DNA of 64,000 bases from Malacoraja senta (lineage: Eukaryota), in NCBI GenBank assembly GCA_038087875.1, contig CM075990.1, positions 17,486,001-17,550,000 on the forward strand, in the 5' to 3' direction. The position numbers and the translations under genes were made by a program. Each line of letters opens with the position of its first letter. Position 1 is the stretch's first letter. Of this stretch, positions 6,769-34,938 are shown in pieces. Below the pieces are notes generated by a model, which worked only from the letters and a program-made list of their open reading frames with translations, ran no database searches and was not told the origin of the DNA.

Positions 6769-6796
6769 CTGAAGAAGGGTTTCGGCCCGAAACGTT
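6769..6796 (+). ncRNA. Minimal hammerhead-ribozyme-like motif (UUCG-loop variant) in a Penelope-derived short element (~6765-6865)
   Basis: CTGAAGA-A-GGGT-TTCG-GCCC-GAAA-CG-TT. Flanks ggt/gcc can form a short helix I. Confidence 0.55.
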
Positions 6797-7014
6797 GCCA
6801 ATTTCCTTCGCTCCATAGATGCTGCTGCACCCGCTGAGTTTCTCCAGCACTTTTGTGTACCTTCCAAATATCTTTGTTGGTTGCAAAGTCGCAGTTTTGA
6901 AAACGTCGTCGCCGTGTCCGGGGCAATGAGATACTATTGTCACCGTGATCAACAACTTGTTGCTCCCCGACCTTGACTACGGCCCTTTGAGATGGACTAT
7001 TACATTGACCTTGA

Positions 7015-7295
7015 CAGTAGTGCAGCGGTAGAGTTGCTGCCTCACAGCGCCAGAGAACCGGGTTCGATCCTGACTACGGGTGCTGTCTGTACGGAGTTTG
7101 TACGTTCTCCCCCTGACCTGCGTGGGTTTTCTCCAAGATCTTCGGTTTCCTCCAACACTCCAAAGACGTACAGATTTGTAGGCTAATTGGCTCGGTGTAA
7201 ATGTAAATTGTGCCAAGAGTTGATGTGCGGGGATTGCTGGTCGGTGCGGACTCGGTGGGACAAAGAGCCTGTTTTTGCGCTGTATCTCTCAATTA
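7015..7295 (+). mobile_element. HE1-like V-SINE, near full length
   Basis: tRNA-like head (GCAGCGGTAGAG...GGTTCGATCC), V-domain and CR1-like tail ending GCCTGTTTTTGCGCTGTATCTC. Confidence 0.88.
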
Positions 7296-7829
7296 AACAT
7301 ATTAAATTACATGGCCTTGTATATTATATGACCTTGACAACATCCCCTTTAGGGAGAATGTTATAATTTGGCAATTGATATACGATATAAACCTTGTAAA
7401 CTTTACAGCTGATATTAAAAATATTGGAAAATAAAGAAATTCAAGCTGGTTGGTGCACCGGGCTGATTCAGCGGCAGGGTGGGGTGAGTGCCAGGAGGTG
7501 GCACAGACCAAGAAGTGTCCACAAATCTTAGGTTTACATTTAGTTTTATTGTCATGTGTGTCGAGGTACAGTGAAAAGCTTTGCTTGCTAACTAGTCAGA
7601 TCAGATAATACAATATTATCCAATCAAACCGAACTCAAGTGCAAGCGATGCTCCAGAGATACTGCCTTACCCGCTGAGATACTCCAGCACTTTGTGTCTT
7701 TTCAAGTGTAAGTACAATGGATGGAGCGATGGGTTGATACAGGGTGCAGAATATAGTTCTCAGCAATTGTAGCACACCAGTTTAGTTGAGCTGAAAGATA
7801 CAGCTAAGGATTCTGTAAAGATACAGATA

Positions 7830-8080
7830 CCTTAGGCCCACCGGTTACGTGCTGACCAATGATCACCTGTACACTAGTTCTACCCTACATACTCGGGAAA
7901 ATTCACAGAAGCCAATTAACTCACAAACCTGTACGTCCTTGGTGTGTCTGAGGAAACCAGAGCACCCAGAGAAAACCCACCTGGTCACAGGGAGAACGTA
8001 CAAACTGTACAGACAGCACCTGTAGTCAGGATAGAACCTGGGTTCCTGGCGCTGTCAGGCAGCAACTCTACCATTGCCAC
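7830..8080 (-). mobile_element. HE1-like V-SINE
   Basis: Reverse complement of the same SINE consensus. Confidence 0.8.
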
Positions 8081-8129
8081 CGAATATGTAGTGGGGTAGA
8101 GGTGAATTAGACAGTGCCCTAGTTTATGG

Positions 8130-8420
8130 CTTGTGGGAGAAGCCTGATACCAGAGGGGCAGAAGCTGACCCTGAATCTGGTAGTGCGCGCTTTCAAGCAT
8201 CTCCATCTTCTGCCGGACGGGAGCAGGGAGAAGAAGGAGTGACCGGGGTGGGACAAGTTATTATGTTGGCTGGTTTTCTGAGGCAGTGTGATGTGTAGAT
8301 GGAGACAGTGGTGGGAAGTCTAGTCTGTGTGATGGATGGGGCTTCATCTATGAATCTCTGCAATGTCTCGCAGTCTTGAGCAGAGCTGTTCCCAAACTAA
8401 AGTGTGATGCTCGCTGACAC
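8130..8420 (-). mobile_element. Rex1/Babar LINE fragment, diverged
   Basis: The minus strand resembles the same ...PGHSFFSLLPSGRR... region seen in other copies. Confidence 0.65.
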
Positions 8421-9019
8421 TTGGATATAATCCTACCTTCTCTGCCATTATTACTCATCTCTTCTCCTTCCTCGAATGTTCAACAACATTGGACCCATCA
8501 ATAGCGTTAAATCCACAGACGTGATGCCTTCAGCTTCAGCCCACAAGAAGTAATAAAATGGGGTTACGAATTATATAATTCGGGCGGTGGAAGATAATTA
8601 AATTAGCCATTGAATTGTTGTAAAATTAGGCTGTAAAATAAAATAAAACCAAGCAGCAAAGGAGTAATGAAAACCTGGTAGTGATTATGAAATAAAGTCA
8701 ATGCAAGTAGATTAATGGAACTCAGAGGAAGAAGGAATATTACACAAAATTAAATCAGAGAGCATGTTCATAAATTACTTGGGCTAAATCTGTAAACCAC
8801 AAAGTAATCTGTTTGCTCAACAATAACAACAAAAACCTTTGTTGCTGCTTAATAATTTGAATGTTGTTCATAGTCTGATGAAATTATCACAAGTCTACCA
8901 CTTTCCATGGATACAGTAGATTCAGTGGACAATGCTGCTGTTACTTCTGCACTGGCTATATGATCTCCCGGCAGTGACATGTTGATGTCAGTCAGTAAAT
9001 CAGGTGTTCATTTTTAGGC

Positions 9020-9430
9020 GCGATCGACACAAAATGCTGGAGTAACTCAGCGGGTCAGGCATCATCTCTGGGGAGAAGGAATAGGTGACATTTCGGGTCG
9101 AGACCCTTCTTCAGACTGAGTTAATGAGTGATGTAGAGAGATGTAGAACAAACGAATGAAAGCAAAAAAGTAACGATGGTAACGATGTTAAAGGAAAGGC
9201 CATTGTTGGCCATGAACTAGGTGAAAACGAGTTACAGCCAATGAAACTCAACAAAATGTTTTTGAAAATAGTATGATGGGTGGGGGAGGGACAGAGAGAG
9301 AGAGAGAGAGGGAGTGCAGGGGTTATTTGAAGTTAGAGAAATCAAGATTCATGCCGTTGCCCAAGCAGAATATGAGGTGCTGTTCGTCCAATTTGTGTTT
9401 GGCCTCACTCTGGCAATGGACGAGGCCATA
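9020..9430 (-). mobile_element. Penelope-like element 3' end (GIY-YIG C-terminus remnant plus 3' pLTR region)
   Basis: The minus strand encodes a CQSEAKHKLDEQHLIFCLG-like remnant. A hammerhead-like motif with one substitution (GAAATGTC) lies at 9087-9114. Confidence 0.8.
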
Positions 9431-10521
9431 TTTAGTAATGTTGACACTGTTACAGACCAATAATCCGGAGCAATTTGACCAACAGGTCTGACGCTTCCGG
9501 CATGGCCAACTGTACGTAAACCCTGTGAGACAGACCTGTAAGTTATTGAAGAGAGCTCGGTGCCCGCCGTGACTCCTGGAGTGTAGCTTTGTCCCAGGAG
9601 CTGGGGCTGTGAACTACACACGTCTTGTTGCCATCATCCATTATGCCGTTTAAACCTCTTTGACATTCACAACTTGTGAGCCATTAATATTCTGCCTGTA
9701 AAAGCCTCAGGTGTGCGTTACTTCCCATGAGCCAATGAACTCATTTGAACCTTTGGTACTTACCATTGATTACTTTGTGCGATTGTTTGGAACAATTACC
9801 GGTCTCCTCAGTACAACGGCGGCATGGGGGAGAAATCGTGGAGGGGGAATTGGTTCGTCAGCCCCTGCTTGAGTCCTATCGTCTGGTTCCAAGGAATTGG
9901 ATGGATTCCTACTTCTTGCTAAATCTCACTTTCTTTTAGATGCTAAAACTGTACGTGTAATTCCCCCCCCCCCATCATATCCATGCCCAGTGGGGAGCAG
10001 ATGTGGAAAAATGCATCATTGATCTAAAGCAACTTCTGCAGAGTTCCCATCTGGGATTGAATAACTAATGGTGGTTTCTGTGGACAGAAACAAGGAAGAT
10101 GCCTTGTTATCCATCATCACATTTCCCAAGTCACAGTCTCCATGCTCGAACAGCCTCGACAGATTTAGCACAAACAGGGCTTTCTATTTATACCACATCT
10201 GCCCAATGTTCAGCAGCTGAACTTTAGTAGATCGGACAGAGGAATTTGAGGCAGGGGAGAAACTGGGTGAAATAGTCTGAGGGATGGAATGAGCAAATCC
10301 TGCCCCTAGTTGTCATGTTCACCCTGGCCACGCTCTCATCTCACTGCCACGCTCTGGACGAAGGTGCAGGTGCCTGAGAACCATGACCTCCAGGTTCAAG
10401 AACAGCTTCTTACCAGCAACCATCAGGCTCACGAACCACATCCCTAACCACATCCCCACCACAACCCCGATCAACAATGGATGTTATATAGCTTGTGCTA
10501 CACACCTGGGCTTGAATATCA

Positions 10522-10810
10522 TGTGTAGGAAGGAACTGCAGATTAATTCAGATCAGTCTGAAGAAGGGTCTCGACCCGAAACGTCACGCATTCCTTCTCT
10601 CCAGAGATGCTTCCTGTCCCACTGAGTTACTCCAGCACTTTGTGTCTACCTTCGATTTAAACCAGCATCTGCAGTTCTTTCCTACACAGGAACTGCAGAT
10701 GCTGGTTTAAACCAAAGAAGGATCTCGACCCGAAAAGTTACCTATACCTTTTCTCCAGAGATGCTGCCTAACCCGCTGAGTTACTCCAGCTTTTTGTGTC
10801 TATCTTCTTG
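10522..10810 (+). mobile_element. Cluster of Penelope-derived short elements
   Basis: Contains the family blocks CTGAAGAAGGGTCTCGACCCGAAACGTC, GCTGAGTTACTCCAGC and CAGCATCTGCAGTTC in both orientations. Confidence 0.75.
10558..10585 (+). ncRNA. Minimal hammerhead-ribozyme-like motif (CUCG-loop variant)
   Basis: CTGAAGA-A-GGGT-CTCG-ACCC-GAAA-CG-TC, intact. Confidence 0.55.
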
Positions 10811-10963
10811 CACGATCATGGTCTGGTTTACCTGGAACAATGAATAATTCTTTGCATATTTATTGTGCTGTGTTATTTCATCGTTCCGTTCCCTGTGCAA
10901 ATGATAATTAAACACTCTTGTGGAAACAAGGAACTGCAGATGCTGGCTTATACCAAAGATAAA

Positions 10964-11220
10964 CACAAAGTGCTGGAGTAACTCAGGCAGCATCTGTGGA
11001 GAACATGGATAGGTGACGTTTCACAGAGTGTTGGAGTAACTCAGCGGGTCAGTCAGCATCTGTGGAGAACATGGATAGGTGACGTTTCACAGAGTGTTGG
11101 AGTAAATCAGCAGGTCAGGCAGCATCTGTGGAGAACATGGATAGGTGACGTTTCACAGAGTGCTGGAGTAACTCAGCGGGTCAGGCAGCATCTGTGGAGA
11201 ACATGGATAGGTGACGGTTC
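10964..11220 (-). repeat. Tandem array of a 66-bp Penelope-derived unit (3 full copies plus 1 shortened)
   Basis: CACAGAGTGCTGGAGTAACTCAGCGGGTCAGGCAGCATCTGTGGAGAACATGGATAGGTGACGTTT starts at 11022, 11088 and 11154, with a deleted copy at 10964. Confidence 0.9.
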
Positions 11221-12264
11221 AGGTCGAGATCCTTTCTCAGACCATGTCTCTAAGATAATTAGCATAATTCAGATTAGGTCTGTATTCAGACACTCGGTTT
11301 TATTAAGAGCTTGTTATTGTTCTAGTTTGCACTTCATTTCCCTATTTCCATATTAGATCAGACTATGCCTGACACAAACCTGCATCCCACATATAGTTTA
11401 AGTACACAATTAGTTCTCTTGATTCACAGAGAAATGATTCATCTGTTGTTTTCTCTAATGGAAAAGAAACACTTTCCCAACTCCTGTCAACCTGTCAATA
11501 ATCTTCAGGATAACACTGAGGGGGGAGTGAGTGTCTGATCATACTCTTAATTGAACAGATAACCCAGGAGACAAGAAAAAAAAATCCTATCTCTCCCGCA
11601 ATTGAACTTGATCCTTCCAAACCTTAGAGATATTGAGGAGCTGAATTGTCTGTCTGTGAGTGGCGTCTGAGCTGTGTTTGACATCCCATTAGTTAGTGCA
11701 CAGTGGTGTGAATCTGAGGGGTTTAATTACAACTAATGACTGATCAGGGGCACAATGCTGTTCCCAGCAATTAAAAACATTGGTGCAAATAGTTCATATA
11801 AATCGAGCGGAAGGCTGGCTCTGCATCGACACGAGAAAATTCCCTGGTGAAAATCAGTGCTGCAAAGATACAATTCCTTCAGAGTAGCTTCATAATTGTC
11901 TTCATCTTTAATGGAATAAACCGTGGAGTGTAGTTTGCTTTTGTACGGGCAACCTGGATGAACGCAACACTAGATTGTGGAGTGATGTACCTCAATTGTT
12001 TGGGAAGACAATCTAATAGACTTTGAATAATTAAAACAAATTGTTTGCTCTTTAAAGAGGAGAAGAAGTAGTTGTTGATGTCAGGTTGGTGGTAAAGCCT
12101 TATCATCTCAGCTGGAGAGAGAAATTAGTTGCGCAGCGCAATGTCCCAGAGGAGCAGACCACAAATTTGTTTGTAGCTTAGTGGAGATGAATCTTCTTGA
12201 CAGATGAGTTTGGGGACAAATGAATGATTATGATTAATCAGAGATCTTACCTCTCACCTGTGAG

Positions 12265-12585: not shown

Positions 12586-12606
12586 CATGTTCAGACTGGT
12601 GCATGA

Positions 12607-12855: not shown

Positions 12856-13119
12856 TGAACTGCACATACACGATGGAGCAGAAAGCCCAACGCGGTCACA
12901 AGGAGAACGTACTAACTCTGTACAGACAATACCCGTAGTCAGGATGGAACCCGGGTCTCTGGCGCTGTGAGGCAGCAACTCTACCGCTGCACCACCATCC
13001 TGCTACTCTTATTGAAACCAAAATCATTTAAAAAATCAACTGTTAACTCCTCTGTGCGAGGAATATTTACACAAACCACAGTAAAACAGGTGGAAGAGTT
13101 ACTGAGCAAAACGATAGTC

Positions 13120-13335: not shown

Positions 13336-13339
13336 TTGA

Positions 13340-14051: not shown

Positions 14052-14370
14052 AAGAAAGAACTGCAGATGCTGGAAAAATCGAATGTAGACAAAAAATGCT
14101 GGAGAAACTCAGCGGGTGAGGCAGCATCTATCTCTCCCTCCTAACCCCATTCTCCTGCCTTCTCCCCATAACAAAGCAAGGACTGTGCCAAAGATTAATT
14201 TTTTGAAGGTAGACAAAAAATGCTGGAGAAACTCAACGGGTGAGGCAGCATCTATGGAGAGAAGGAATTGGCGACGTTTCGGGTCGAGACCCAGGGTCTC
14301 TCCATTCCTTCGCTCCATAGATGCTGCCTCACCCACTAAGTTTCTCCAGCATTTTTTGTCTACCTTCAAA
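14052..14370. mobile_element. Penelope-derived elements, including a ~70-bp-arm hairpin (14201-14370)
   Basis: TTTTGAAGGTAGACAAAAAATGCTGGAGAAAC... is the reverse complement of ...GTTTCTCCAGCATTTTTTGTCTACCTTCAAAA. A truncated hammerhead-like motif sits in the loop. Confidence 0.8.
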
Positions 14371-16215: not shown

Positions 16216-16943
16216 TGACCAATATCTCCATCACAGGCCCCAATGGTCCTGTCATATCACCGTGTATACCCCACAAGCCAAATAAACGGCTATTTCCTGC
16301 ACTTATAGCCTATAATGTTGTACACAATGCTTCCAAAGTGCTGCCCTCATCTCTGTCCTAGCCATTCATTCATTTCTTCACAGCCCCACAATTGTTCTAC
16401 TCATGCAGGCTGTTAACAGCTGTGTAAAGTGTGTTAGTGAGGATGCAATCTAAATTAACAGAACATAGTTTCAACTCATGAGGTGCTGACAGATTAATGT
16501 TGAATTAAATGGTTTCTTACTGAAGATATGGCTTTGAAAGCGGGCTCTTAATTCACAATAGTAATCAACTGATATTTCCAAATTTAAACCGAGACTCCAC
16601 GCTCACTGGGGTCATTTACTAAGTGTAGACCCTCAGGACACAGCCTTGCCAGCGAAACACACTTCATCTTCTTGTCATGAGTGGGTTTATCCAGGGGACC
16701 CTTGACTGAGATCAGTCACTATATTCCCAATGCTCCCAGTTCTGGCAGTTTGTACACCCTTGATATTCCTCCCTCCCACACGGGCCGATGGGCCTCCAGC
16801 TGCCTAGACCCAAGGTCTGCAACTCCCTCCCTCCCTCAACCTCAATGCCCATCCTGTTATTCACCTTAATCATCGTTGCTTTTGACATTTCTTTCAACCA
16901 TTTGTTCTATGTACCATCTATTCCCTCTCGCCTGACTCTCAGT

Positions 16944-16971
16944 CTGAAGAAGGGTCTCGACCCGAAACGTC
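16944..16971 (+). ncRNA. Minimal hammerhead-ribozyme-like motif in a Penelope 3' end (~16860-17040)
   Basis: agt-CTGAAGAAGGGTCTCGACCCGAAACGTC-acc, intact. Confidence 0.55.
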
Positions 16972-17489
16972 ACCCGTTCCTTCTCTCCAGAGATGCTGCC
17001 TGTCCCGCTGAGTTACTCCAGCATTTTGTGTCTATCTTCTGGCGTTCTCTCATGTGGCTTGAAGTCAAGGTCTTGAAATAAGCCTTGGTTTGATTTACGG
17101 GGTGGAAGTTCTGCAGAGATCCTTGTTCTTGTTCTTACATTATTGCAAGAATAAGGGTCTTTAGAGGCAGACTAATCAACAGCTCATTAAATCAGATTAT
17201 TTCAGAAGGCTGTGTGTGATTGAACCATGACTTTAACCTGCATGGTCTGTAATCACCAGATCCAGAGTGTGTAAAACATACCAGAACCACATCATCCCAG
17301 CAATGAGCTGCCGGACAATGGGGTAGACCTGGGTACAATTACAATGTTGAAACGGTATTAAGACAGGAGTGATATTGAGTGATACAGACCAAATATAAGC
17401 GATTAGAATGAGCATTGATGTGTCTGATGAAGTGGGCTGTTAAGGCCCACGTACTATTGTATGTTGTACGATTCTAACTTTAAACAGGT

Positions 17490-17755: not shown

Positions 17756-18267
17756 AGTCCCCTTTTCATTTGCACACCAAACATTCTCTCCCGAGCCTCC
17801 TCCAATGCCAGAGTGAGGCCACACACACTAAGGACAGCAGAGTTGTACATGGTAATATATGGTCACAATGGCTTCCACAGTCATCATCTTTGTGACACTG
17901 AGGTTTCAATCTCATCTCAATGACCAAACATTCCTAAAATCAAAAATATGTTGAAAATGATAATAATTAAAAAAATAAAAGTTCCACATAGATGGCAACT
18001 TAAATAAGCAATGCACCAAATGTATTTTCTACTGGATCAGATGCTGATATTATAGTTTATTCGAGGCACAATTAACATGAATAATTAGTCAATTCACATT
18101 TTTTAACAAAGGGAGCCATATTATTACTGTGTAGATTGGAGATTGGGATTGAATGATGTTTAATCAACTACTCCGTAATGGGAAAACTAGTCCATGGCAG
18201 TGCAGGATTAACAAAACAACATCAGTGCAAAAGCTAATTACAAAAGCAATTTGATGGCAGCACAAGT

Positions 18268-18515: not shown

Positions 18516-19023
18516 CTGCAAAACACCAAAGAAACACACACCAGGCCAATTCATCCATGCCAACCAACATTCCCCCAGTCCCATTTACATGCATTTGTTC
18601 CATATCCGTCTCAACCTTTCCCAGCCAAAGACTTCAGGGTTTTTTGCAGTATTATTGGGGGTCATTAATTTAGTTTATGATGTTATGTGTGTGTATTGTG
18701 TTTATGGGTCTGCTCTGTTGCTGCAAGTATGAATGTCATTGCTGCGTTGTCAGCACAGGTGATCATTAAATACTCGACACAGTAGGTTGTGTGGCTCGGT
18801 GGTTAAGGCTAACCTGCTGTGGCAGGGATTGAGTGGTGCTGAAACATGGACACATGTTGATTTAATCGCACCTCAGGGGAGGGGGTCTTCGGAGTTGCAG
18901 AGCTGGGTAGGTGGTCCCTGCTCTAACAAGCACCTCACTTCTTAAAGTCTTCATGTGTTTATCCTGGTGCTGGTGGCAAGGGCAGAGCAGAGGGAATATC
19001 ACGAATCTGTGGGGTGTGAAACT

Positions 19024-19535
19024 GTGTAGGAAGGAACTGCAGATGCTGGTTTAAACCGAAGATAGACACAAAAAGCTGGAGTAACTCAGTGGGTCGGGCA
19101 GCATCTCTGGAGAAAAGGCATTGGGTTGAGACCATCCTTCAGACTGAGAGTCAGGGGAAAGGGAAACAAGAGATACTGTATAGACGGTGATATAGAGAGA
19201 TATAGAACAAATGAATTAAAGATACGCAAAAAAGTAAACAGGCCATTGTTCGCTGTGGGCTAGGTGAAAATGAGTTACAGACAATGAGATAACAAGGTGA
19301 TTTTGAAGCTGGTATGACTTGGGTGGGGAAGGGATGGAGAGAGCGGGGTGCAAGGGTCATGAAGTTAGATAGGTTAATATTCATACCACTGGGGTGTAAG
19401 CTGCCCAAGTGAAATATGAGATGTGGTTCCTCCAATTTGCATTGGGCCTCACTCTGACAAGGGAGGAGGCCCAGGACAGAAAGGTCAGTGTGGGAATGGG
19501 AGGGGTAATGAAAATGTTTGGCAACCGGGAGATCA
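19024..19535 (-). mobile_element. Penelope-like element 3' end with GIY-YIG endonuclease C-terminus
   Basis: The minus strand reads DLPVAKHF..PSHSHTDLSVLGLLPCQSEAQCKLEEPHLIFHLGSLHPSGMNINLSNF, the typical PLE ORF end. It is followed by the same pLTR block found in the short copies. Confidence 0.85.
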
Positions 19536-19919
19536 TGCCGATCAGGCAGTGTTGCTTTACAAAGGCAGAAGCTGTGGGTCTGGATACGGTGTGACTGACT
19601 TATTGGGAATAGTTTGTGGTTTAATGATGGCCCGTGACTGAGGCATCAACCTCTCTATCAGAGGTCACTTTCTGCAGCTGCCCGACCCTGCGACCACAAT
19701 CTGCAAAGCCCAAGCAAACACATTCGGATTATCACTCGACAACGGGCAGAGTGAGCGTCACACCTCCACCACCCCTCCCTGGTGAAATGTCCACACCACC
19801 TCCACACCACTAATGGATTCCTCTGGTAATTCTGCTTTCAGTCACAGTCTGTGAGTACAGCCACACGTCCGGTACATCACTGCATCAACATTTACAGCAC
19901 TGTTCTCAGGCACCAGAAT

Positions 19920-20640: not shown

Positions 20641-20874
20641 AAAACGCTCACAGCAATTCAGTTGTGGAGGGTTAGTGTGGAGTTGTTCACCCAGCAGAAG
20701 AGGGAGAGGTGGAATCAGATTCAGAATTGTCATACCTTGAGTATGTCCCGCTGAGTTACTCCAGCATTTTGTGTCTATCGGAATCTACAAGCTTCAAATT
20801 GCTATTATTTACATGTCAATGAGGGTCAGATGAATTTATTTCCAGGAGGAGACTGAAGGAACCATATATTTGGT

Positions 20875-21100
20875 GAAGATAGACACAAACTGCTGGAATA
20901 ACTCAATGGGACAGGCAGCATCGCTGGAGAGAAGAGATGGGTGACGTTTCGGGTCGAGACCCTTCATCTGGAAGAAGGGTCTTGACCTGAATCATCACCC
21001 ATTCCTTCTCTCCTGAAATGCTGCCTGTCCCGCTGAGTTACTCCAGCTTGTTGTGTCTATCTTCGGTTTAAAACAGCATCTGCAGTTCCTTCCTGCACAT
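20875..21100. mobile_element. Inverted pair of Penelope-derived short elements
   Basis: GAAGATAGACACAAACTGCTGGA... pairs with ...TCCAGCTTGTTGTGTCTATCTTC. Two degenerate hammerhead-like motifs meet at the centre (20941-20998). Confidence 0.78.
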
Positions 21101-21719: not shown

Positions 21720-21872
21720 TGAAGGTAGACAAAAATGCTGGAGAAACTCAGCGGGTGAGGCAGCATCTATGGAGCGAAGGAATAGGTGACGTTTCGGGTC
21801 TCGACCTGCTGAGTTTCTCCAGCATTTTTGTCTATCTTCGATTTTTCCAGCATTTACAGTTCTTTCTTAAAC
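21720..21872. mobile_element. Inverted Penelope-derived short element
   Basis: GAAGGTAGACAAAAATGCTGGAGAAACTCAGC pairs with GCTGAGTTTCTCCAGCATTTTTGTCTATCTTC. Confidence 0.75.
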
Positions 21873-22569
21873 TTCTCAGGCAGTGAGATCAAAACATCCA
21901 ACCACCTATTAATTGCCATGAAAATAATGGTGATCTTTGACTGGACCATATATCACATGGACTACAGGGGGGTCAGGGTTCAGCAGTTGACTAACTGATC
22001 AATTTGCCAATGTTCACCATTAATACATTTGTAAGGATTACCAGTATTAACCAGTGTAAGCCCCTTGGTCACAGTGCCCCAGTAAGGCCCTTGTTAGTCA
22101 GAGCGAGGTGTTGGGGAGAATGCTTGTCCTCCGGGCTAGACATTGAGTAATTAACCACGCACCACAGCTGTGGCCACTGGGGAGGTAATTGTTTCCAGAC
22201 ATAATGAGAGAAAGTTCAGCACGTGTCCTCCAGATTAACCCCTTCTGCATCTAACTTACACCAAAGCAACTAATATTCTTACCACAGCACCGAGTGTTGT
22301 GGAGAGGCACTGTGGAGATAGATATTTTAGTATAGAATAATGGTTGAAATATGAAATTGACAGCACATACTAGTTTTGTGGAGACCCTTCTTCACCCATT
22401 CCTTCTCTCCAGAGATGCTGCCTGTCCCGCTGAGTTACTCCACCAGTTTGTAAACCAGCATCTGCAGTTCCTTCCTACACATAATAATTGTGCCACTGTA
22501 AGCACCAAGATAGAATAGAAATCAGTATTAGTCTCACAGGTCAAAGTGCTGGGGTAACGCCATGGGTCT

Positions 22570-22783: not shown

Positions 22784-23851
22784 GGGTCAGGCAGCATCTC
22801 TGGAGAACATGGACAGATGACGTTTTGGATCAGGACCATTCATCCAACTGCTATTTCCTGCAATGGATCTCAACGTTATTTTCACGCTGAGTTACTCCGG
22901 CACTTTAGGTCTTTTTTTTGTAACCCAGCATCTGCAGTTCCTTGTCTCCACATTACTCTCATAGGTGGAGGTTTACAAAAGCCAGCATCACTGGGTTTCT
23001 TCTCAAACACGTGGCAGCCCCAGGGAACGTAGGCTCTAAGTGACCAATTACCTGCTTCAGTGAGCAGCATACCTTCCACATCAGCCTGGCGTGAGAATTT
23101 GTTTACAGCCCAGGAGGTTGTTCCAGGGCATGGAGCATGGTTCCAGTAACAGATTGTGCACTAAAGATTTCCAGGTGCCTCTCTGTGTCCCAGAATAACT
23201 GAACCACATTCACCTCCACCGTCGCTGTGCTACAAATGTGGTGGCAAGTTCAACAGGCAAACACTTAATTTGTGTGACACATAATGAACTCTCATCAAAG
23301 ATTAAACTCGTCTACTGCAAGCTGGATCCAATTATCCCCCTTTGCACACAGGTGCACCAAGACTTCTGGTGTAACATTTTCATTCCAGTCCATGGCTAGA
23401 ATGAGGGGGGCATTGATTGGAATGCGAATTCATGTAGTTCATAAGTTCATTAATCATAGGAGCGGAATTAGGCCATTCGGCCCATCGAGTCTATCACCAT
23501 TCAATCATAGCTGCTCTAACATTTATGGAGTATGAATGATACAAGCGTACTGCATGAATGGTAATTTCCTGGGAACACTGATGAACAGAGGGACCGAGAC
23601 AAGAAGCCCCTTGGGTTGGTGGCTGCCGTTAGTCAGGGCATTGAATGGCCCCATAGCAGAAGCGTCCACGTCACGGGGTTGGAAACTGGAAGTATCCTGA
23701 GCTAATTCTGCTACCACCATCATCTATTGCAACAAGTGATGGCTCCCACTGATTGTCGCCGGAAGCTTGCGTCCTTTTCAGGACGGACGATGACAGCGAG
23801 GTCAACATTTGTAACATGTTGGACCTCGATGGACACGAAAGAAGAAGAAGG

Positions 23852-26165: not shown

Positions 26166-26289
26166 TTTTGCAGTAAGGTTTGAGTGTTTTGATTTATTCT
26201 TCAGTTCACTAACAGCAGAATCTTTATGAATTGAACAATGAGAGGTTGGGGCAGAGAATTTGTCTGTTCAAGAATCAGAGTTGTAATGT

Positions 26290-26665
26290 TTAAGGAAGAA
26301 CTGCAGATGCTGGAAAAATCGAAGGTAGACAAAAATGCTGGAGAAACTCAGCGGGTGAGGCAGCATCTATGGAGAGAAGGGATAGGAGACGTTTCAGGTT
26401 GAGACCCTTCTTCAGACATTTGGTCATGTACGTGGATCGGACAGGTTTGGAGGGATTTGGGACAAACTCAGGCAGGTGGGACTAGTGCACATGGGGCACT
26501 TTGGTCGACGTGGACAAGTTGGGCCGAGGAATCTGTTTAGAAAGGAACTGTAGATGTCGGTTTATGCCGAGGATAGACACAAAAAGCTGGAGTAACTCAG
26601 CGGGACAGGCAGCATCTCTGGAGAGAAGGAATGGGTGACGTTTCTGGTCGAGACCCTTCTTCAAC
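26290..26665 (-). mobile_element. Two Penelope-derived short elements interleaved with a CR1 tail
   Basis: Family block at 26292-26417 and 26540-26665, each with a hammerhead-like motif carrying substitutions. Confidence 0.75.
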
Positions 26666-27577
26666 CTCTTCAGCATGGGTCTGTTGCCATGCAGTATCAC
26701 TATGGATTTAGGTTTACTGATAACAGATGTAAAGAACATGCTTTACATTATAGGTTCATGGGTCTTGGTCCTCCAAAATATTCCAAATGGAATGTAAACT
26801 GGAGGACCAACCTAACCCAAGATGGTTGGAAAGTGAACAGAGCACACAGTGCTGGAGGAACTCAGTGGGTCAGGCAGCATCAGAGGAGGGAATGGACAGG
26901 TGTTTTTTGGTCAGGACCCTTCTTCAGACTGAGAGGTTTGCATCTTCTCTCTGTTGCCTTTGACCCATTCTTGTCCAACTGCCAGCAGCTGCTTGCAAGT
27001 GGGGGCTGTTTATGTTGTTTCCCTTGCTTTCCAAAGATTCACTGCCAAGCTGAAGGATAAATCACAGCAGTTAATAGGACAAACATAAGTGATACAAATT
27101 ATTTAAATATACTAATTGCCAAATAACTCAGGAAAGAGGCAGGTGGACCTTGTAACCACAATTGATCCCAGGAGTGGGAATGAGATGGGGATGTGAAGGG
27201 AACATGATGAAGGGCTTGGCAAAGGCTTTGTAGATTGCTTCCAAAGCAACGCGCAATGACGCAAGTTGTGTTGGGTCGCACTATCCATCATTGCAATGGA
27301 ACTGACCCGTGAACCTCTGCTGCATTACTCCCATTCTTGGCCATTGGAACAATATTCCTCCAGCAAAGATGTGCCATTTTGATTGAATTGATTGAAAGGT
27401 ACAGCACAGAAACAGACCCTTGGTCCATGCTGACCATCGAACAGCCTAGTTCCATGTTAACCCACTTCTGCATCCACTCCCTACACACTAGGAGCCCCAG
27501 AGGAAACTCGTGCAGTCACAGGAAGATTGTACACACTCCACACAGACAGCACCCAAGCTTGGGTTCGAACCCGGGTT

Positions 27578-28414: not shown

Positions 28415-29569
28415 TTAGGCAACATCTCTGTCCTCCAGGTCACTGAGTTACTCCAGCATTTTGCCTTTTCACCGCACCTGGTTGTTGAGGCAGGGACTAT
28501 CGCAACGTTTAAGAAACAATTAGACAGGTACATGGATACGGCAGGTTTAGAGGGATATGGGCCAAACGCAGGCAGGTAGGTTTAGTGTAGGCAGGTGGGT
28601 CATGTTGGTCGGCATGGGCAAGTTGGGCCGAAGGGCCTGTTTCCACGCCGTATCACTCTATGACTATCTATGTCTTTGGGACACGTGACACCCAACCTAA
28701 AGCATGCAGCAGTCCCTCACGTTGCCATGGAGCAGTTGGACAAACCTTGGGCTTGGTGTCTCAAGCCTGCATCTTGCTGAGTGAGTGTGCAGTGTCACTG
28801 AACAAGACAAGCCTTGACCACTGCTGGGTCTTTGTTCAATGTCCAGGCTTATCTGCACATTGGAAAACAGCCTTGTCCTGGCCAAAGTAAACCTGTAATG
28901 TGGAAAACAGACGAATTAAACACAAAACAAAAAAGATTAACGATACAAATATTTTTAAACATTTTCAATGTCATAAAGTATTTTTAACAGTCGTCGAAGT
29001 AGAGAGATGTGGGTTCTCAAGGGGCTAATCTTTGTGGGTAAGGAGGATTGCTGTCTCGGTCTTGGACCATGGACTAGGTATGCTTCTCATTGTCCTGTTG
29101 CCATCGGCTGTAGTCAGCCCTGGCTGCATATCTTCCTGTTGCTAAACAAAGCCACGGAATATAACAAGCAGGAACAGGAAGGTCCACACAACAGAATGTG
29201 AAGCACACAGCAACTAAAGTATCGGGTGGTGGGTGGGAAACCATTGATTCAGGCTGTATTCCAATTAGTAAATAGTTCTGCTATTCACACGGCTTGGGAA
29301 ATGTCTGCTTCTGAAATATACCCAGAGCAAAATAACAACTTTAACACAAGTAATGAGACCGCATCTAGAACAACCCTGCCCTCAGCAACACAAGCCCCAG
29401 GAGGAGCTCAGCAGGTCAGGCAGCATCTGCGGAGGGAATGGACAGGCGACGTTTCAGGTTGGGACCCTTCTTCAGACTGATGGTGGAGGGGGGAGAGAGC
29501 TGGTGAAGAGGGGTTTGATTTACAGATGGATGGAGTAAGTGACAAAGGCTGGAGGTGAACAGGGCACAT

Positions 29570-29812
29570 CTTCTTCTTCTGTCGTATGTCTTTTAGACCT
29601 GCAGCTCCGTTGAGGCGAGCCAGGCCAACGTGTCATCGTCCAGGTCAATCAGACCTCGTTCACTATTCGGTGGCCGGTGTTTGGGGCAACTGGTGACTAT
29701 GTGCTCCACTGTCTGTGTTGGGTCCCCACACTCGCAGGAGGCGCTGTCTGCGAGGCCCCACCTCTTCATCGCTACTCCATAGCGTCCGACGCCTGTCCTC
29801 AAGCGGTTGCCA
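29570..29812 (-). mobile_element. RTE-X-like LINE 3' end with (GAA)n tail
   Basis: NRLRTGVGRYGVAMKRWGLADSASCECGDPTQTVEHIVTSCP (CCHC-type tail domain). It sits inside a Penelope 3' region (29400-30050). Confidence 0.75.
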
Positions 29813-30279
29813 GATAAGGAGAGAGGAGGAAGAATGAAATATGAAGCTGGAGGGATCGATATAGGCGGAAGAGGAGGTGAGAAAGGAACGGGGAAAGTTA
29901 AGGCAATCATCCCTCCTCACCTGTATCCACCTATCACTTGCCAAACTTTGTCCTATCCCCACCTCACTTTTCCAGCTTACTCCCCCCTACCCCTTCAATC
30001 TGAAGAAGGGTCCCGACTTGAAACGTCATCTGTCCATTCCCTCCACAGATGGTTTGGTTCGGTCTACTACTATTGTCTTGAGCCCCGAGGTACAGTGAAA
30101 GGCTTTTGTTTATATGCTATCAAACCAGATCAGATAATACAATCAAACTGTACAGGTGGAGTGAAGAGAATAATGCCAGTGTGAAGAATATTGTTGTCAG
30201 TGTTGTAGCGTCGTAGTTCCAGAGACAGAGTCCAATGTCTGCGGTGAACAGAGGGGAAGAAGCTGCTCCTTAGTCTGAT

Positions 30280-30565
30280 AGTTTAGTTTAGAGATACAGC
30301 ATGGAAACAGGCCCACCGGCCCGCAGAGCCCGTGCCAACCAGCGATCACCTGTACACTAGTTCTATCCCACACACTGGGGACAATTTACAGAAGCCAATT
30401 AATCTACAAACATGCACGTCTGTGGCATGTGTGAGGAAACTGGAGAAAACCCAGGTGGTCACGGGGAGAACGTACAAACTCCGTACAGACAGCACCCGCA
30501 ATCAGGATGGAACCCGGGTCTCTGGCGCTGTGAGGCAGCAACTCTACCGCTGCACCACCGTGCCA
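30280..30565 (-). mobile_element. HE1-like V-SINE
   Basis: Full SINE consensus on the minus strand. Confidence 0.85.
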
Positions 30566-30904
30566 CCCTATTCCTGAGTCCTGATGTTGCCTGACCCGCA
30601 GAGTTCCTCCTGCACATTGTTTTTTTTCTCTAGATTCCAGCATCTGCAGTTCCTCGTGTCTACAGAATCTTACACTCGCCAGCTGTGTTGGATCACCAGT
30701 GGAACTTGGAACAGTGAGAGCCAGAACCGTCTGAATGAGGCCAAGCTATGGTCTATATTCCAGGCCCCCGACATGAACAGCCAGGCTGAGAACAACATAA
30801 CTTAGAACAGAACAGTACAGCATAGGAACAGGTCCATAATGTCAGCAACAAACCTGATGCCAAGTTCAATATATCTTAAACTTAGGGGTGGCACAGTGGT
30901 GGAC

Positions 30905-31720
30905 GGTCGGCATGGTGATGCAGCGGTAGAGCTGCTGCCTCACAGTGCCAGAGACCCAGGTTCGATCCTGACCATGGACACTGTCTGTACAATATTTGTA
31001 TGTCCTTCCCTTGACCGCATGGGTTTCCTCCGGGCGCTCCGGTTTCCTCCCACATTCCAAAGACGTACAGGCTTGTGTGCAGTTTTGGTCTCCAAATTTG
31101 AGGAAGGACATTCTTGCTATTGCAGTGCAGTGTAGGTTCACAAGGTTCATTCCCGGGATGGCGGGACTGTCATAAACTGAGAGAATAGAGTGGTTGGGCT
31201 TTTATATTCTGGAATTTAGAAGGACGAGAGGTGATCTGATTGAAACATATAAGATTATTAAGGGTTTGGACACGCTAGAGGCAGTAAACATGTTCCCAAT
31301 GTTGGGGGAGTCCAGAACCAGGGGCCACAGTTTAAGAATAAGGGGTAAGCCATTTAGAACGGAGACAAGGAAACACTTTTTCACACGGAGGGTTGTGAGT
31401 CTGTGGAATTCTCTGCCTCAGAGGGCGGTGGAGGCCGGTTCTCTGGATACTTTCAAGAGAGAGCTAGATAGGGCTCTTAAAGATAGCGGAGTCAGGGGAT
31501 ATGGGAAGAAGGCAGGATTGTGGATGATCAGCCATGATCACATTGAATGGCGGTGCTGGCTCGAAGGGCCGAATGGCCTTCTCCTACACCTATTATCTAT
31601 TGTCTATTGTAGGTTAATTGGCTTTGGTAAAAATTGTAAATAAGTGCTGGCGTACTGGAGATCGCTGGACGGCGTGGACCCGATGGGCCAAAGAGACTAT
31701 TTCTGCACTGTATTTCTAAA
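30905..31720 (+). mobile_element. V-SINE split by a CR1 insertion (CR1 ~31078-31607)
   Basis: The SINE stops at AAGACGTACAGGCTTGT and resumes at TTGTAGGTTAATTGG. ORF 31194-31643 is the CR1 ORF2 C-terminus. Confidence 0.85.
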
Positions 31721-31922
31721 CTGATCCCTTCAGCCTTCACGTGATCCATATCCCTGTATTTCCTGCATGTTCATGTGCCTGTCCAAACGCCTCTAAAATG
31801 CCACTGTCACAACATGTTCCAGACACCCATCACTCTCTGTGTAATTAATACAACGTGTGCAGAACAGGTGAGTGGTTGATGCAAGGTTGCAGTGTGAAAC
31901 CGGCAGTGAAAAATAATATTCA

Positions 31923-32185
31923 TGGGCCTGTCCCACTTACGTGACTTTTCGGCGACTGCCGTCACCCGTTATAGGTCGTTGCAGGTCGCCGAAAATGTTC
32001 AACATGTTGAAAATCCAGTGGCGACCAGAACAAGGTACGACTTTGGGCGACTACTCACGACCATACAGGCTTCACCCCGCGACATGTCACCTGTATGGTC
32101 GTGAGTCGTCTCCTCAGTCGCCCAAAGAGTCGTAGCGTCTTTCTGGTCGACGCTGGATTTTCAACATGTTGGAAAATTTCAGCGA
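31923..32185. mobile_element. Truncated relative of the Harbinger-type MITE
   Basis: Same left TIR TGGGCCTGTCCCACTT. Internal inverted repeat TTCAACATGTTGAAAATCCAG / CTGGATTTTCAACATGTTGGA. No right TIR seen. Confidence 0.65.
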
Positions 32186-33249
32186 ATGAGTTAGAGTTAG
32201 GAGCAAGAGTATAAAGCAGCACCTTCAGGAATAGGGTGTAAAAGAGGTGATTGGTTCCTGAGACTTCTGCAGTGGAGAAGAAACTGTTCTTAAGTCTGGA
32301 TGTTTGAGTTTTCAGGCTCCTGCATCTTGAAACCTGAAATCTTTAGACTTTTCCAGGGAGTCTAAATAAAGGAAACATCGACATCTTGTAAGTGTCTTCC
32401 ACAGTAAACAGTAGTGACATTTTAAATAATCAAAATTACCAGGAACATTGGAGATGAAAGAACAATCTGTAACAGGAAGCTGGCATGGAAACGTGGTCTC
32501 CTGAGCCAGTTCTGGTGGAGTTTGGCCCAGTCTCAACGGGAAGAGATTGAGGAAGCAGATGCTGCTGAACGCTGGCAGTCCATGTCTTCAGCAGAGCTCC
32601 CCTTGCACAGACTGACTCACTGTACCCAACAGGGCGGCAATTGCTCTGCTCATCACAGCGCTTCCAGCTTGTTCTTTGCCTTCCCCTCAGGGGTTTGGAA
32701 CCCCCCCCCTCCTCGCATGGTAAATGGACTACAGGAGGTAATCTCCCATCAGCTGCAAGGTCATGTCTTCAGCGTTCCCGTGTGTGGGGAAGGAGTTGGC
32801 TTCAGTCGTGCTTGACGATGTCAAAACCTCTGGCTGGGAAGAGTGTTGGAATCAATGACGTATTTCCACCAATTCTCACTATTGTCCCTTGAGCAGAAGT
32901 GGGCATCTTTTGATTGTGATCTATTTTTATTTCTTAGAATGTTTTGGCCCACAGTGTCCATGATAAACATGATACCAAGATAAACATATCTCCTCTGCCT
33001 GCACGTGATCCATATCCCTCCATTCCCTGCATATCCATTTGCCTGTCAAACCTGCCACTATCGTATCTGCCTCCACCACTGTCACAGGCAGCTCGTTCCA
33101 GGAATCACCACTCTCTAGGTAACAAAACCTACTCCACATCTGTTTTAAACGTTGCCGCTCGCATCTGAAACCTATGCCCTCTAGTATTTGATTTTTCCAT
33201 CTCACCGAATTGAAACTTCAGCACACAGTCTGCAGATTTAAACTTTAGA

Positions 33250-33910
33250 CGTTAGAGATACAGCATGGAAACAGGCCCTCCAGCCCACCGAGTCTGTGCC
33301 AACCAGCGTACACCAGCACGATCATACTCACTGAGGAAAATTTACAACTTACAGAAGCCAATTAACCTAAAACCAGAGCACCTGGGGAAAACGCACGCAG
33401 GTCACAGGGAGAATGTACAAACTCCATACAGGCAGCACCCATGGTCAGGATCGAACCCACTGTCTCTGGCGCTGTAAGGCAGCAACTCTACCATTGTGCC
33501 ACCGTGGCAATGTTCAACCAGAAAGCCCACAGCTTTGCTCAGATGGTAATGCATGTCCAGTTATCCCTTGGTTCGTAAATTCCTTGAGTTGGTGCGTAAA
33601 GGAGTGAAGCCCCCCCCCCCACCCCCCTCACCCCCATTCACACAACTACCACGCATCACATATACTGTCTCGACACCTATTTTAGTTCAGTTTAGTTCAG
33701 AGATACAGCACGGAAACAGGCCCTTCAGCATGAAGATAGACACAAAGTGCTGGAGTAACTTAGCGGGACAGGCAGCATCTCTGGAGAGAAGGAATGGGTG
33801 ACGTTTCGGGTCGAGACCCTTCTTCAGACTGGCCACCGAGTCCGCGCCAACCAGCGATCCCCGCACACTTACACTATCCTACACACACTAGGGACAATTT
33901 ACAATTTACC
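33250..33910 (-). mobile_element. Two V-SINE copies (33250-33505, 33685-33910), the second interrupted by a Penelope-derived element (33730-33830)
   Basis: The SINE tail ACAGGCCCTTCAGC is separated from its continuation CCACCGAGTCCGCGCC by the Penelope block. Confidence 0.78.
33800..33827 (-). ncRNA. Minimal hammerhead-ribozyme-like motif (CUCG variant)
   Basis: Reverse complement is CTGAAGAAGGGTCTCGACCCGAAACGTC. Confidence 0.55.
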
Positions 33911-34910
33911 CAAGATTTCACCATCCCTGCTCACGGTTTTCCCTTCTTGCATCTTTATGAAAAACATGTGATAAAAGTCAATGGAAATAGCTGACAGAAA
34001 TCTAATTCTGATTCAACTTTTACTGTTTCTGCCGTGATGAAGTCCCGTCAGGAAATATTCAAACTCATTTTAACCAAACCAGATCAGAGACTTTGCACAA
34101 AATTTATGGCTTCAGCAAATGTATGATTCATTGCGAAGTTGCCACCAACAAATTGAGGTTATCTCCATCAGAGTTTAATTGCTGTTTGTACAGATGTTGG
34201 CATTATACAGATTGGTGTCACCTGACACCACGACTCATTAAAAGAGGCAAACTCTGACCTTTGCCAAAGAGAAAAAGGTTCCAAAAATACTATTTGCGAA
34301 CAGCACGCATTGATTTATTGTCCATGCAGACCTGGGCACAAGATATTAATCAGCTGCAGAATATGACATTGATTGCTGCTACACTCAACTTCATCCTTGC
34401 AGTGACCTTTTGAGAGGGAGCAATGAATGAAAGGTCAATCAGCTCACCCTGGTCTCCAAGGTCACTGCTTTCATTTCACTTTCTCCTTGACATTAATGCA
34501 TCTCCTGTGAAACCCATTGTGAGAGAGTTCTGTCCATTCAGTACTAGAACACCTGGGTGTCCAGCAGTAATCTCCAAATGCCTCTCCATTTGTTGACAAG
34601 TTTGCAGTCAAATGTTGAATCAGACAGATGATGGGGGAAGCTGGAGATGTTAGAAGCAGTCGGCACTTCAGGCAACATCTGCAAAGGAGAAAGGAAGAGA
34701 GGTAACAGAGTAGCGTGCATTACAGGAAGGATGTGGAGGCTTTGGAGAAGGAGCAGAAGAGGTTTGCCCGAATGCTGCCTGGATTAGAGGGCATTATCTA
34801 TAAGGAAAGTGTTAAAGAAGGAACTGCAGATGCTGGAAAATCGAAGGTACACAAAAATGCTGGAGAAACTCAGCGGGTGCAGCAGCATCTATGGAGCGAA
34901 GGAAATAGGC

Positions 34911-34938
34911 AACGTTTCGGGCCGAAACCCTTCTTCAG
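34911..34938 (-). ncRNA. Minimal hammerhead-ribozyme-like motif (UUCG variant) in a Penelope 3' end (34812-35070)
   Basis: Reverse complement is CTGAAGAAGGGTTTCGGCCCGAAACGTT. Confidence 0.55.

Follow-up and report, generated by a model that had tools for sequence, protein, structure and literature searches.

A dispersed family of Penelope-derived repeats carrying a minimal hammerhead-ribozyme motif in a 64-kb genomic window

The systems closest to the repeats described here include: (i) the minimal hammerhead ribozymes (min-HHRs) of metazoan Penelope-like elements (PLEs) (Cervera and De la Pena 2014, PMC4209133), (ii) PLEs of the Neptune clade (Craig et al. 2021, PMC8557442), (iii) the Poseidon element PAc of Anolis carolinensis (Frangieh et al. 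2024, PMC11167929), and (iv) non-LTR retrozymes, which are reported in one chondrichthyan genome (Li, Clavereau and Pollet 2026, 10.64898/2026.07.22.740005). In Fig. S3 of PMC4209133, the min-HHR consensus runs from a U-rich flank through CUGANGAH, a G..C helix II, GAAA and a palindrome to UH, and helix I spans 2-6 bp, with 2-bp cases known. Among PLEs, a CX2-5CxxC linker marks Neptune and Nematis, and an optional 30-40-bp tail is known (PMC8557442).

A dispersed family of Penelope-derived repeats with a hammerhead motif is present in the window (the whole 64-kb stretch of DNA analysed). The exact 28-nt motif occurs five times, as three copies of the GGGT-CTCG-ACCC...GTC type and two of the GGGT-TTCG-GCCC...GTT type, at 6769-6796(+), 10558-10585(+), 16944-16971(+), 33800-33827(-) and 34911-34938(-). 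All five had been placed there by an initial annotation, and its nine further sites with substitutions were recovered within 2 nt. Twelve matches are found at ≤3 mismatches (0.00 expected, 100 shuffles) and six with a generic hammerhead-core pattern (0.03 expected). The repeat unit around the motif measures ~105-135 nt. A profile of the ~135-nt block detects 51 fragments at E≤0.01, which cover 4,355 bp (6.8% of the window) and are balanced between strands (23 + and 28 -, p 0.58), compared to 0 fragments in the reversed window; at maximal sensitivity, 54 fragments at about 37 loci are detected (control, 1 match at E 0.74). Thus, the copies named earlier are all real, but their total was too low. 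The accompanying claim of a very high copy number, with most copies truncated, is supported by this census and by run X1, in which 230,617 of 18.6 million contigs match window positions 8900-10900.

The complete minimal-hammerhead descriptor is found in 7 of 25 aligned copies in the 64 kb (4 on the + and 3 on the - strand). These include a short copy of the TTCG group at 6766..6870(+), with the descriptor at 6769-6796 and a short 3' end; a copy at 16871..17041(+) that has ~70 nt of upstream UTR before the motif at 16944-16971 and likewise a short 3' end; a short copy at 33730..33831(-) within another dispersed repeat (motif 33827-33800); and a TTCG-group copy at 34811..35070(-) that has pyrimidine-rich sequence upstream, where no ORF end was detected, a motif at 34938-34911 and a tailed 3' end. 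Two copies belong to an older group: 29388..29479(-), with the descriptor at 29475-29448, and 29998..30053(+), which has lost its 3' part and has two G-U pairs in helix II (30000-30027). The seventh lies in a compound insertion at 10523..10808, in which an inverted tail fragment is followed by the complete motif at 10558-10585(+), a tailed 3' end to 10687, a second inverted tail fragment and a degenerate second copy at 10714-10808(+).

Other copies depart from the descriptor at defined positions. The tailed copy at 26288..26418(-) has an intact core and helix II with a broken helix I pair (2.1-1.1), while C3 and 11.1 are changed in the tailed copy at 26535..26667(-), G5 in the degenerate tailed copy at 54813..54939(+), and G12 and the 16.2 CpG in the degenerate copy with a short upstream UTR at 55767..55886(-). 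A degenerate copy at 40940..41093 (copy on the - strand) has an inverted tail fragment on its 5' side. Head-to-head inverted pairs occur at 20856..21098, where the joint (~20969/20970) falls within the first hammerhead-core bases and one arm is tailed, and, as truncated copies found by the sensitive profile search, at 14203..14370, the source of a spurious Rfam MIR1507 match. The same search found an inverted pair of truncated copies at 21720..21872. At 22378..22480, a short inverted core piece precedes a direct arm whose first base lies either at the predicted cleavage site or 2 nt ahead of it. Two tandem arrays are present: 3.6 units of 66 bp that begin with GAAAC, without CUGANGA, after a degenerate copy at 10924..11243(-), and 3.0 coreless units of 61 bp (99% matches) at 63701..63898(-), each of which begins at the predicted cleavage site and runs up to the TGTGTC close to the short 3' end. 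Separately, a single-copy CPEB3-like HDV-type ribozyme candidate is located at 23646-23712.

The tie between this block and a Penelope GIY-YIG ORF end, proposed earlier from the long copies at 9020-9430 and 19024-19535, is upheld by 9021..9442(-) and 19018..19585(-), in which the ORF end lies ~210 nt upstream of the motif. The former includes the ORF end (9442-9323), a ~210-nt pyrimidine-rich 3' UTR, the motif (9114-9087) and a short 3' end; the latter, the longest copy, includes a 61-aa GIY-YIG C-terminus (19543-19361), the 3' UTR, a broken motif and a tailed 3' end. Neither carries a complete motif, due to a deletion that removed GAAACGTC from 19018..19585 and a CpG change at 15.2 (helix III) in 9021..9442; for the TTCG group, no ORF tie was found within the window. 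A search with the ORF end recovers 129 proteins at E≤0.001, the best from Rhinoraja longicauda and Leucoraja erinacea (67-70% identical to the 61-aa fragment), and the fragment aligns at 46-70% with the C-terminal part of GIY-YIG proteins. The 61-aa fragment has zero Pfam matches of its own, and Pfam GIY-YIG is detected in 7 of 13 relatives scanned, each below the curated cut-off. Reverse transcriptase (RT) and GIY-YIG share one ORF in the relatives P0049, P0101 and P0118, and the CX2-5CxxC linker precedes the [LIV]Y[IV]GET motif in six of the seven relatives examined (P0004 is a chimera without it). The linker and a telomerase-like RT in one ORF are found in P0001, P0017, P0049 and P0101, while the truncated copies of the window lack both. 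Neither an RT nor a full-length element was found within the 64-kb window, and a metagenome scan for the RT of this element was empty; thus, the clade call rests on relatives of the 61-aa fragment, which are skate proteins and Neptune-type PLE ORFs and point to a Neptune-type assignment.

The motif fits the published PLE minimal type I hammerhead (PMC4209133) in order, spacing, 9.1 insertion, palindrome and place within the pseudo-LTR (pLTR). The extra A, earlier taken as grounds to doubt activity, is instead a hallmark of the class and not a defect (PMC4209133). It is found at 9.1 in 23 of 23 copies, followed by G10.1 in 21 of 24 and C11.1 in 15 of 24 (plus seven with a CpG-type T). Of 25 aligned copies, 9 retain the core in full (11 bases), along with H17 and a 4-bp helix II. 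The class has a palindrome at 15.2-16.2 and no separate helix III, and in the window positions 15.2 and 16.2 are C-G by majority (20/25 and 18/25), and the palindrome is kept in eight of the nine core-complete copies. Helix I is 2 bp in seven core-complete copies and 3 bp in 6769, and A2.3 lies opposite C1.3 where upstream sequence is present. Non-CpG differences are fewer in the core than downstream (15/248 vs 134/1141, p 0.009), in support of a core more conserved than its neighbours. No variant common to at least three copies is found in the 11 core columns, compared to 16 in 49 downstream columns; the copies compared are related, the seeds that recovered them bore the motif, and the invariance of the core is matched in many downstream columns. 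An Rfam search of the window at E≤5 returned no hammerhead family.

The copies form at least four sequence groups, according to diagnostic columns and a 22-copy tree, rather than the two subfamilies first described, and the two TTCG-type copies are nested inside the CTCG-loop clade. The TTCG-type change does keep helix II paired as U-G; it is, however, one-sided (2/25 copies) and not compensatory, with a double-sided change in 0 of 4 pairs and a covariation score reached by 447 of 500 shuffles among 25 close copies. In the same 25 copies, 87.9% of helix II cells pair, compared to 6-53% in slid controls. The UUCG tetraloop is also present, but is closed by U-G and is predicted to gain just 0.3 kcal/mol. 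The hammerhead is not the minimum-energy fold predicted by the folding model: helix II pairing probability is 0.04-0.09 in three of six copies folded, the best dimer of each of the six is more stable than the designed one by 11-17 kcal/mol, and none of five copies or sub-stretches is more stable than its shuffles (z +0.07 to +1.73).

The dispersed copies are most likely 5'-truncated 3'-end (pLTR) insertions of several related Neptune-type PLEs of a skate-like cartilaginous fish. The parent is proposed to comprise an RT, a Zn-finger linker, GIY-YIG, a stop, a ~210-nt pyrimidine-rich UTR, the minimal type I hammerhead, ~75 nt and an optional ~30-nt tail; of these parts, the window shows the ORF end, the UTR and the motif, together with two classes of 3' end and inverted 5' pieces. 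Based on work with the Anolis PLE, the element protein would nick target DNA and reverse transcription would begin internally, past the hammerhead, at either of two sites, which would generate the two 3' ends. The 3' ends of 45 fragments fall at model positions 127-134 (23), 97-107 (15) and elsewhere (7), the two classes being ~30 nt apart and differing by the optional tail, and the top loose ends of run X1 recur there (10688, 10806-10807 and 9026). Reverse transcription would usually halt early, most commonly at the 5' edge of the hammerhead, often leaving an inverted piece; such a piece is seen at 9 of 37 loci. The two 3'-end classes and the nine inverted loci agree with known PLE insertion anatomy, and the less expected features are the very high density and the sharp 5' break-point at the motif edge. 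In active parents, the motif was probably held by selection and most likely cleaves weakly, as a dimer via the ACGU palindrome or aided by the element protein. The dispersed copies would be passengers that decay after insertion, chiefly at three CpGs of the motif, and most of them have probably at no time cut host RNA to any meaningful extent.

The 5' ends bear on an alternative that is considered unlikely, namely that the 105-135-nt block is a non-autonomous mini-PLE or SINE-like unit served by Neptune proteins in trans, whose RNA would begin at helix I, either from a start site there or through a 3' splice acceptor at the CAG that precedes the core. Skates would then harbour an Alu-scale, Neptune-driven family of ribozyme-headed, SINE-like 'mini-Penelope' repeats of 105-135 nt, with RNA extending from helix I to the two RT start sites and ~10^5 catalytically complete copies dimerising via ACGU and cutting when the element protein is expressed, an outcome held to be just as doubtful. 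Such a unit fits the pile-up at the motif edge, as 25 of 45 fragments begin at model positions 2-8, 15 of 22 edge-starting copies lose similarity to the long copies within ~10 nt of C3 (seven extend beyond), and six empty-site copies of the host repeat set the boundary of 33730..33831 at 4-5 nt before C3. However, the 5' ends are scattered over ~12 nt and not fixed at a single base, and the starts further downstream (20) and upstream (7) form the continuum that truncation predicts. Also in favour of such a unit, the summed depth of run X1 falls from 2.4 million (9034-9100) to ~2,000 (9168-9301), partly through divergence from the UTR of the window copy at the 85% likeness cut-off, and 4 of 15 listed joints connect 9115-9117 with 10553-10568, the head-to-head junction pattern at the motif edge. 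Positions -4/-3 are CA in all 11 copies that retain them, behind a pyrimidine tract (72-92%) in seven long copies, and the intron 3' end of Drosophila virilis Penelope is published to map to helix I. By contrast, the short copies have no exon-1-like leader in common, with the exceptions of a duplicated block at 1040/1433 and a weak 69-nt match at 26415/45651, and some homology may escape detection because the UTR is low-complexity. The PLE literature cited gives no account of the 5'-end clustering at the motif edge.

Far less probable is that the dispersed copies are working ribozymes at the host level, which cleave in trans or as distant dimers to cut pre-mRNA or form small circular RNAs in a retrozyme-like manner. 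Seven descriptor-complete copies in 64 kb and 199 repeat-bearing contigs in RNA library X17, where DNA carry-over is possible, are consistent with this reading, as is cleavage of the Anolis PLE hammerhead in the presence of its protein (PMC11167929); yet published minimal hammerheads are uncleaved as monomers and cleave at low levels as dimers or trimers, only one of nine Xenopus dimers cleaved, and Anolis RNA-seq has no ends at the cleavage site (PMC11167929). The direct arm at 22392 and the 61-bp array unit start at or near this site, but cleavage-site starts show 2-3-nt microhomology, for which template switching or slippage suffices. Furthermore, CUGANGA is missing from both tandem units, the second core of the 10558/10714 pair is broken, complete motifs on the same strand come no nearer to each other than 1.1 kb (33827 and 34938), complete copies are divided between strands (4 + and 3 -), and 18% of run X1 depth at 10583 already carries a palindrome-breaking CpG change. 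The earlier suggestion of host pre-mRNA cleavage or circular RNA is not borne out, as no host exon was found in the window, the strands are balanced and both arrays lack CUGANGA. The least credible reading, a never-cleaving hammerhead look-alike that serves the element as a promoter or protein-binding signal, draws on the uncompensated helix II, the unfavourable predicted folding, the 2-bp helix I, in vitro insertion in Anolis independent of hammerhead cleavage (PMC11167929) and the spread of Naiad PLEs without canonical hammerheads (PMC8557442), but is countered by the 11 core bases, 9.1 insertion, G10.1-C11.1 and 15.2-16.2 palindrome at the published spacing and element position and by cleavage, with C3-G8 rescue, of the same motif class in another vertebrate PLE (PMC11167929).

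Compared to known systems, the repeats resemble non-LTR retrozymes as non-coding, pLTR-derived hammerhead repeats; however, retrozymes are tandem, with a whole hammerhead in consecutive units, whereas the window has dispersed monomers and arrays without a core (10.64898/2026.07.22.740005). A retrozyme identity was rejected for the window copies on this basis, as at least two consecutive complete-hammerhead units are required and the 10714 core is broken. As in PAc (PMC11167929), the hammerhead precedes 3' ends of two classes, with and without a tail, and is unlikely to fold alone; the clades differ, the window element is known from its sequence, and whereas the start codon of PAc is situated within the core, the core of the window copies reads CTGAAGA and the first ATG follows ~50 nt downstream. 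Likeness to Neptune includes the C-terminal GIY-YIG, heavy 5' truncation, inverted 5' pieces and the 30-40-bp tail; the linker is found in the closest relatives, while linker, RT and full element are absent from the window, the clade is putatively assigned through relatives, and Nematis also has the linker (PMC8557442). The pile-up of 5' ends at the motif edge, together with two fixed 3' ends, documents on a large natural sample the points at which PLE reverse transcriptase begins and ends synthesis. The closest match is to the min-HHRs of PMC4209133, in type I order, CUGANGA plus an extra base, G10.1-C11.1, GAAA-C-G-U-H, the palindromic 15.2-16.2, short helix I, U-rich 5' flank, pLTR place, mostly solitary copies in truncated elements and several families per genome, with helix II (4 bp) and helix I (2 bp) both near the lower limit of the published range. 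No cartilaginous fish is among the Fig. S3 entries compared. The repeats add a skate family to a class known since 2014. With the window taken as typical, extrapolation gives roughly 10^5 complete motifs per genome, 1-2 orders of magnitude over the published vertebrate counts (~4,000 in coelacanth and ~9,000 in Xenopus; PMC4209133), a copy number that would make skates suited to a statistical test of in vivo PLE hammerhead cutting, a question raised in PMC8557442 and PMC11167929.

The repeat is a real, dense family of truncated ends of Penelope-like elements (PLEs), probably of the Neptune type, that carry an already known minimal hammerhead. The five exact 28-nt motifs and nine degenerate sites of the initial annotation all lie at the positions claimed, as found in a pattern scan of the window, and the motif with up to three mismatches occurs at 12 sites compared to 0 in 100 shuffles of the window. 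A profile made from nine window copies detects 51 fragments (23 plus strand, 28 minus strand) at a cut-off of E ≤ 0.01, with 0 in the reversed window; these fragments total 4,355 bp, or 6.8% of the window. At maximal sensitivity, the profile search yields 54 fragments that form 37 loci, with one control match at E 0.74. An exact-pattern scan of the JGI metagenomes for the repeat returned 0 loci.

The tie to a Penelope ORF end holds in two long minus-strand copies (9021-9442 and 19018-19585), in which the ORF end lies ~210 nt upstream of the motif. A 61-aa piece of this ORF (19361-19543) matches 129 proteins at E ≤ 0.001 in a protein search, and has no Pfam match by itself. Two skates, Rhinoraja longicauda and Leucoraja erinacea, supply its best named relatives (67-70%), followed by Hypanus, Narcine and Rhincodon. 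Among the 13 relatives scanned, seven have a Pfam GIY-YIG match (under the curated cut-off) and three combine a reverse transcriptase (RT) and GIY-YIG within one ORF. A CX2-5CxxC linker, noted in excerpts of PMC8557442 as a mark of the Neptune and Nematis clades, precedes the endonuclease motif in six of the seven relatives examined. The GIY-YIG ORF end and its linker-bearing relatives together argue that the repeat derives from the 3' end of a PLE, probably of the Neptune type, the clade being assigned from the relatives of the ORF end; the host is most likely a skate. Neither an RT nor an entire element is found within the 64-kb window. A short stretch of this ORF end also stands alone at 17761-17827 (+), lacking the motif on its downstream side. 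In skate and ray gene models, the PLE ORF end is fused to host proteins (P0001, P0003, P0022 and P0006; the partners are a DUF4518 protein, neuromedin-U receptor 1, and NYAP1-like and ATP synthase c-like proteins); these fusions may be either annotation artefacts or exonisation.

The copies of the repeat differ in how much of the motif they retain. Of the 25 aligned copies, which are those keeping most of the motif, nine retain a complete core together with H17 and a 4-bp helix II, eight also have the palindrome and seven (four plus, three minus) also have the 2-bp helix I. The extra A, initially regarded as a possible handicap, is present in 23/23 and is a hallmark of the PLE class, not a defect. 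The core is more conserved than its neighbours, with non-CpG differences at 15/248 in the core columns vs. 134/1141 downstream (p 0.009) and 44/289 at the free positions of the motif; the 11 core columns hold 0 variants common to at least three copies, and the 49 downstream columns hold 16. This conservation supports putative selection in the parent elements, short of proof because the copies are kin and were retrieved with motif-bearing seeds. The proposed two subfamilies give way to at least four groups in the diagnostic columns and in a 22-copy tree, from which three short copies were omitted. Three branches are well supported, including a five-copy clade and, nested within it, a pair with the TTCG helix II loop that is 98% identical. 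The TTCG type is thus a young branch within a CTCG-loop group and does not form an equal second family. No ORF end lies beside the TTCG-group copies in the window.

The 5' ends of the repeat cluster at the edge of the motif. With a weak match and five units internal to the arrays set aside, 25 of 45 fragments begin at positions 2-8 of the ~135-nt model. Of 22 copies tested (copies 1040 and 1433 being one duplicated block), 15 end within ~10 nt of C3 and seven reach >20 nt further upstream. The 33730-33831 copy is inside another repeat, six empty copies of which set the 5' end at 4-5 nt before C3. Among contigs of sequencing run X1, 4 of the 15 joints listed show a head-to-head junction pattern at the motif edge. 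The clustering is read here as a preferred RT stop, with an independent short unit as the rival explanation. A splice product does not account for these ends: long copies have a pyrimidine tract and CAG ahead of the core, much as in D. virilis, where the intron finishes at helix I (PMC4209133, in part), but the 5' ends scatter too much for this reading. Another 5'-end peak, at the cleavage site, had four candidates and was rejected: 14296 is the product of a microhomology deletion, 752 has diverged too far, 63898 begins 3 nt early and 22392 has a 2-nt microhomology. A Pol III B-box in the helix II hairpin was likewise rejected, being just 10-20 nt from the 5' ends.

The 3' ends fall into two main classes, at model positions 127-134 (23/45) and 97-107 (15/45), with 7/45 elsewhere, and recur as top loose ends in X1. 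The classes are 30 nt apart, in agreement with the optional tail of PLEs; in Anolis this tail spans the distance from one internal RT start site to the other (excerpts of PMC11167929 and PMC8557442). An inverted piece, typical of PLEs in the published account (PMC8557442, in part), is found in 9 of the 37 loci. Head-to-head inverted pairs are seen at 14203-14370, 20856-21098 and 21720-21872; if transcribed, such pairs would give 70-100-bp hairpins that are possible editing or small-RNA substrates. An Rfam MIR1507 match (14233-14338, 42 bits) was rejected as an inverted pair of the repeat. Two tandem arrays, of 66 bp and 61 bp, fail the definition of retrozymes because their units are without CUGANGA. 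In the 61-bp array (63701-63898, minus strand, 99% matches), the unit start is the predicted cleavage site and the junction has a GTC microhomology; thus, slippage accounts for it as well as a circular template does.

The abundance of the family and its 5'-end clustering are its less expected features. The claim of a very high copy number stands in that the repeat is dense in the window and abundant in X1, where 230,617 of 18.6 million contigs match window 8900-10900 (a segment that includes a microsatellite and one further repeat) and unique flanks are covered at a depth of 4.28. Summed X1 depth, which is not a copy number, is in the millions over the motif and falls to ~5% of this level at the ORF end. 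The genome-wide figure is an extrapolation: if the window is typical, its seven complete motifs in 64 kb scale to ~2 x 10^5 per genome and its 37 loci to ~10^6, based on the 2.1-2.2 Gb of the little skate (PMC10115646 and PMC9605692, in part); excerpts of PMC4209133 give 4,000 hammerheads in coelacanth and 9,000 in Xenopus. No paper on this skate family was listed in the hammerhead/Penelope literature for sharks, skates and elasmobranchs; a chondrichthyan family may be named in the retrozyme preprint supplements, which lie outside that scope, as do Repbase/Dfam and supplement file 1 of PMC4209133.

Host exons were not found in the window by splice-site scan, by CPEB-like short peptide motifs (a weak test) or by Pfam, for which 217 frames (≥48 aa) in sequence unrepeated within the window gave a zf-RVT fragment, two marginal matches and nothing else. 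The repeat is carried by 199 contigs of the RNA library X17, from which strand, ends and level are not readable. At position 10583, 18% of X1 depth has a palindrome-breaking CpG change, among the variants listed. Other features include an AT-rich C-terminal fragment of a LINE ORF2 at 5066-6314 (-; zf-RVT, E 6e-4), a 1.5-kb imperfect (TG)n tract at 36810-38339 and a 200-N assembly gap at 39924-40123.

Separate from the repeat, a CPEB3-like HDV-type fold at 23646-23712 (+) may be the best lead of the window. The Rfam RF00622 match (23635-23712) scores 34.5 bits (gathering 35), with E 2.1e-5 for the whole window. In the 67-nt fold, P1 forms 7/7 pairs and differs in sequence from the Rfam consensus, P2 forms 7/7 pairs and is identical to it, P3 has 2/3 pairs, L3 is nearly identical to consensus, P4 is possible with one mismatch, and a candidate catalytic C precedes TAA. 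The candidate is single copy within the window, with no CPEB exon found there. The CPEB3 ribozyme is described as conserved across mammals, and no report from cartilaginous fish was found in the literature searched; if the candidate sits in a CPEB intron, the ribozyme would date to early jawed vertebrates. A partial RF00622 match at 51693-51726 (-; 24 bits, E 0.057, model 13-46, without the 3' half) may be chance.

Downstream of the hammerhead, alignment columns 57-90 (~25-60 nt past the cleavage site) hold a conserved possible stem (57-61 with 86-90) and a GAG-NNN-CTC hairpin (77-79 with 83-85), in which 94% of cells pair and the hairpin loop base differs among groups (A, T or C). Double-sided changes are absent from these columns; thus, a real RNA structure here stays a guess, one that could serve in protein binding or RT start.

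Covariation, folding and Rfam results go against the hammerhead as a working ribozyme. Pairing is kept in 87.9% of helix II cells over 25 copies, yet no pair is altered on both sides, and 447/500 shuffles reach the observed covariation score. The U-A to U-G change is present but one-sided and limited to two copies, while the UUCG loop is present but closed by U-G and worth 0.3 kcal/mol. Six copies were tested for predicted helix II pairing, and the probability is 0.04-0.09 for three of them and 0.65-1.0 for the rest; by the folding model, the designed dimer is less favourable than the best dimer by 11-17 kcal/mol in 6/6 copies, and folded copies show no stability beyond that of shuffles. Rfam hammerhead families are absent from the window at E ≤ 5. 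Published relatives, as described in excerpts, are alike: minimal hammerhead monomers gave no cleavage and dimers weak cleavage (PMC4209133), 1/9 Xenopus dimers was active (10.64898/2026.07.22.740005), and cleavage by the Anolis PLE hammerhead is protein-assisted and dispensable for insertion in vitro, with RNA-seq showing no ends at that site (PMC11167929). PLE minimal hammerheads are mostly solitary and from truncated elements (Cervera and De la Pena 2014, PMC4209133, in part), and the window motif matches every defining point in that account: the core, the extra base between 9 and 10.1, G10.1-C11.1, the palindromic 15.2-16.2 and a short helix I.
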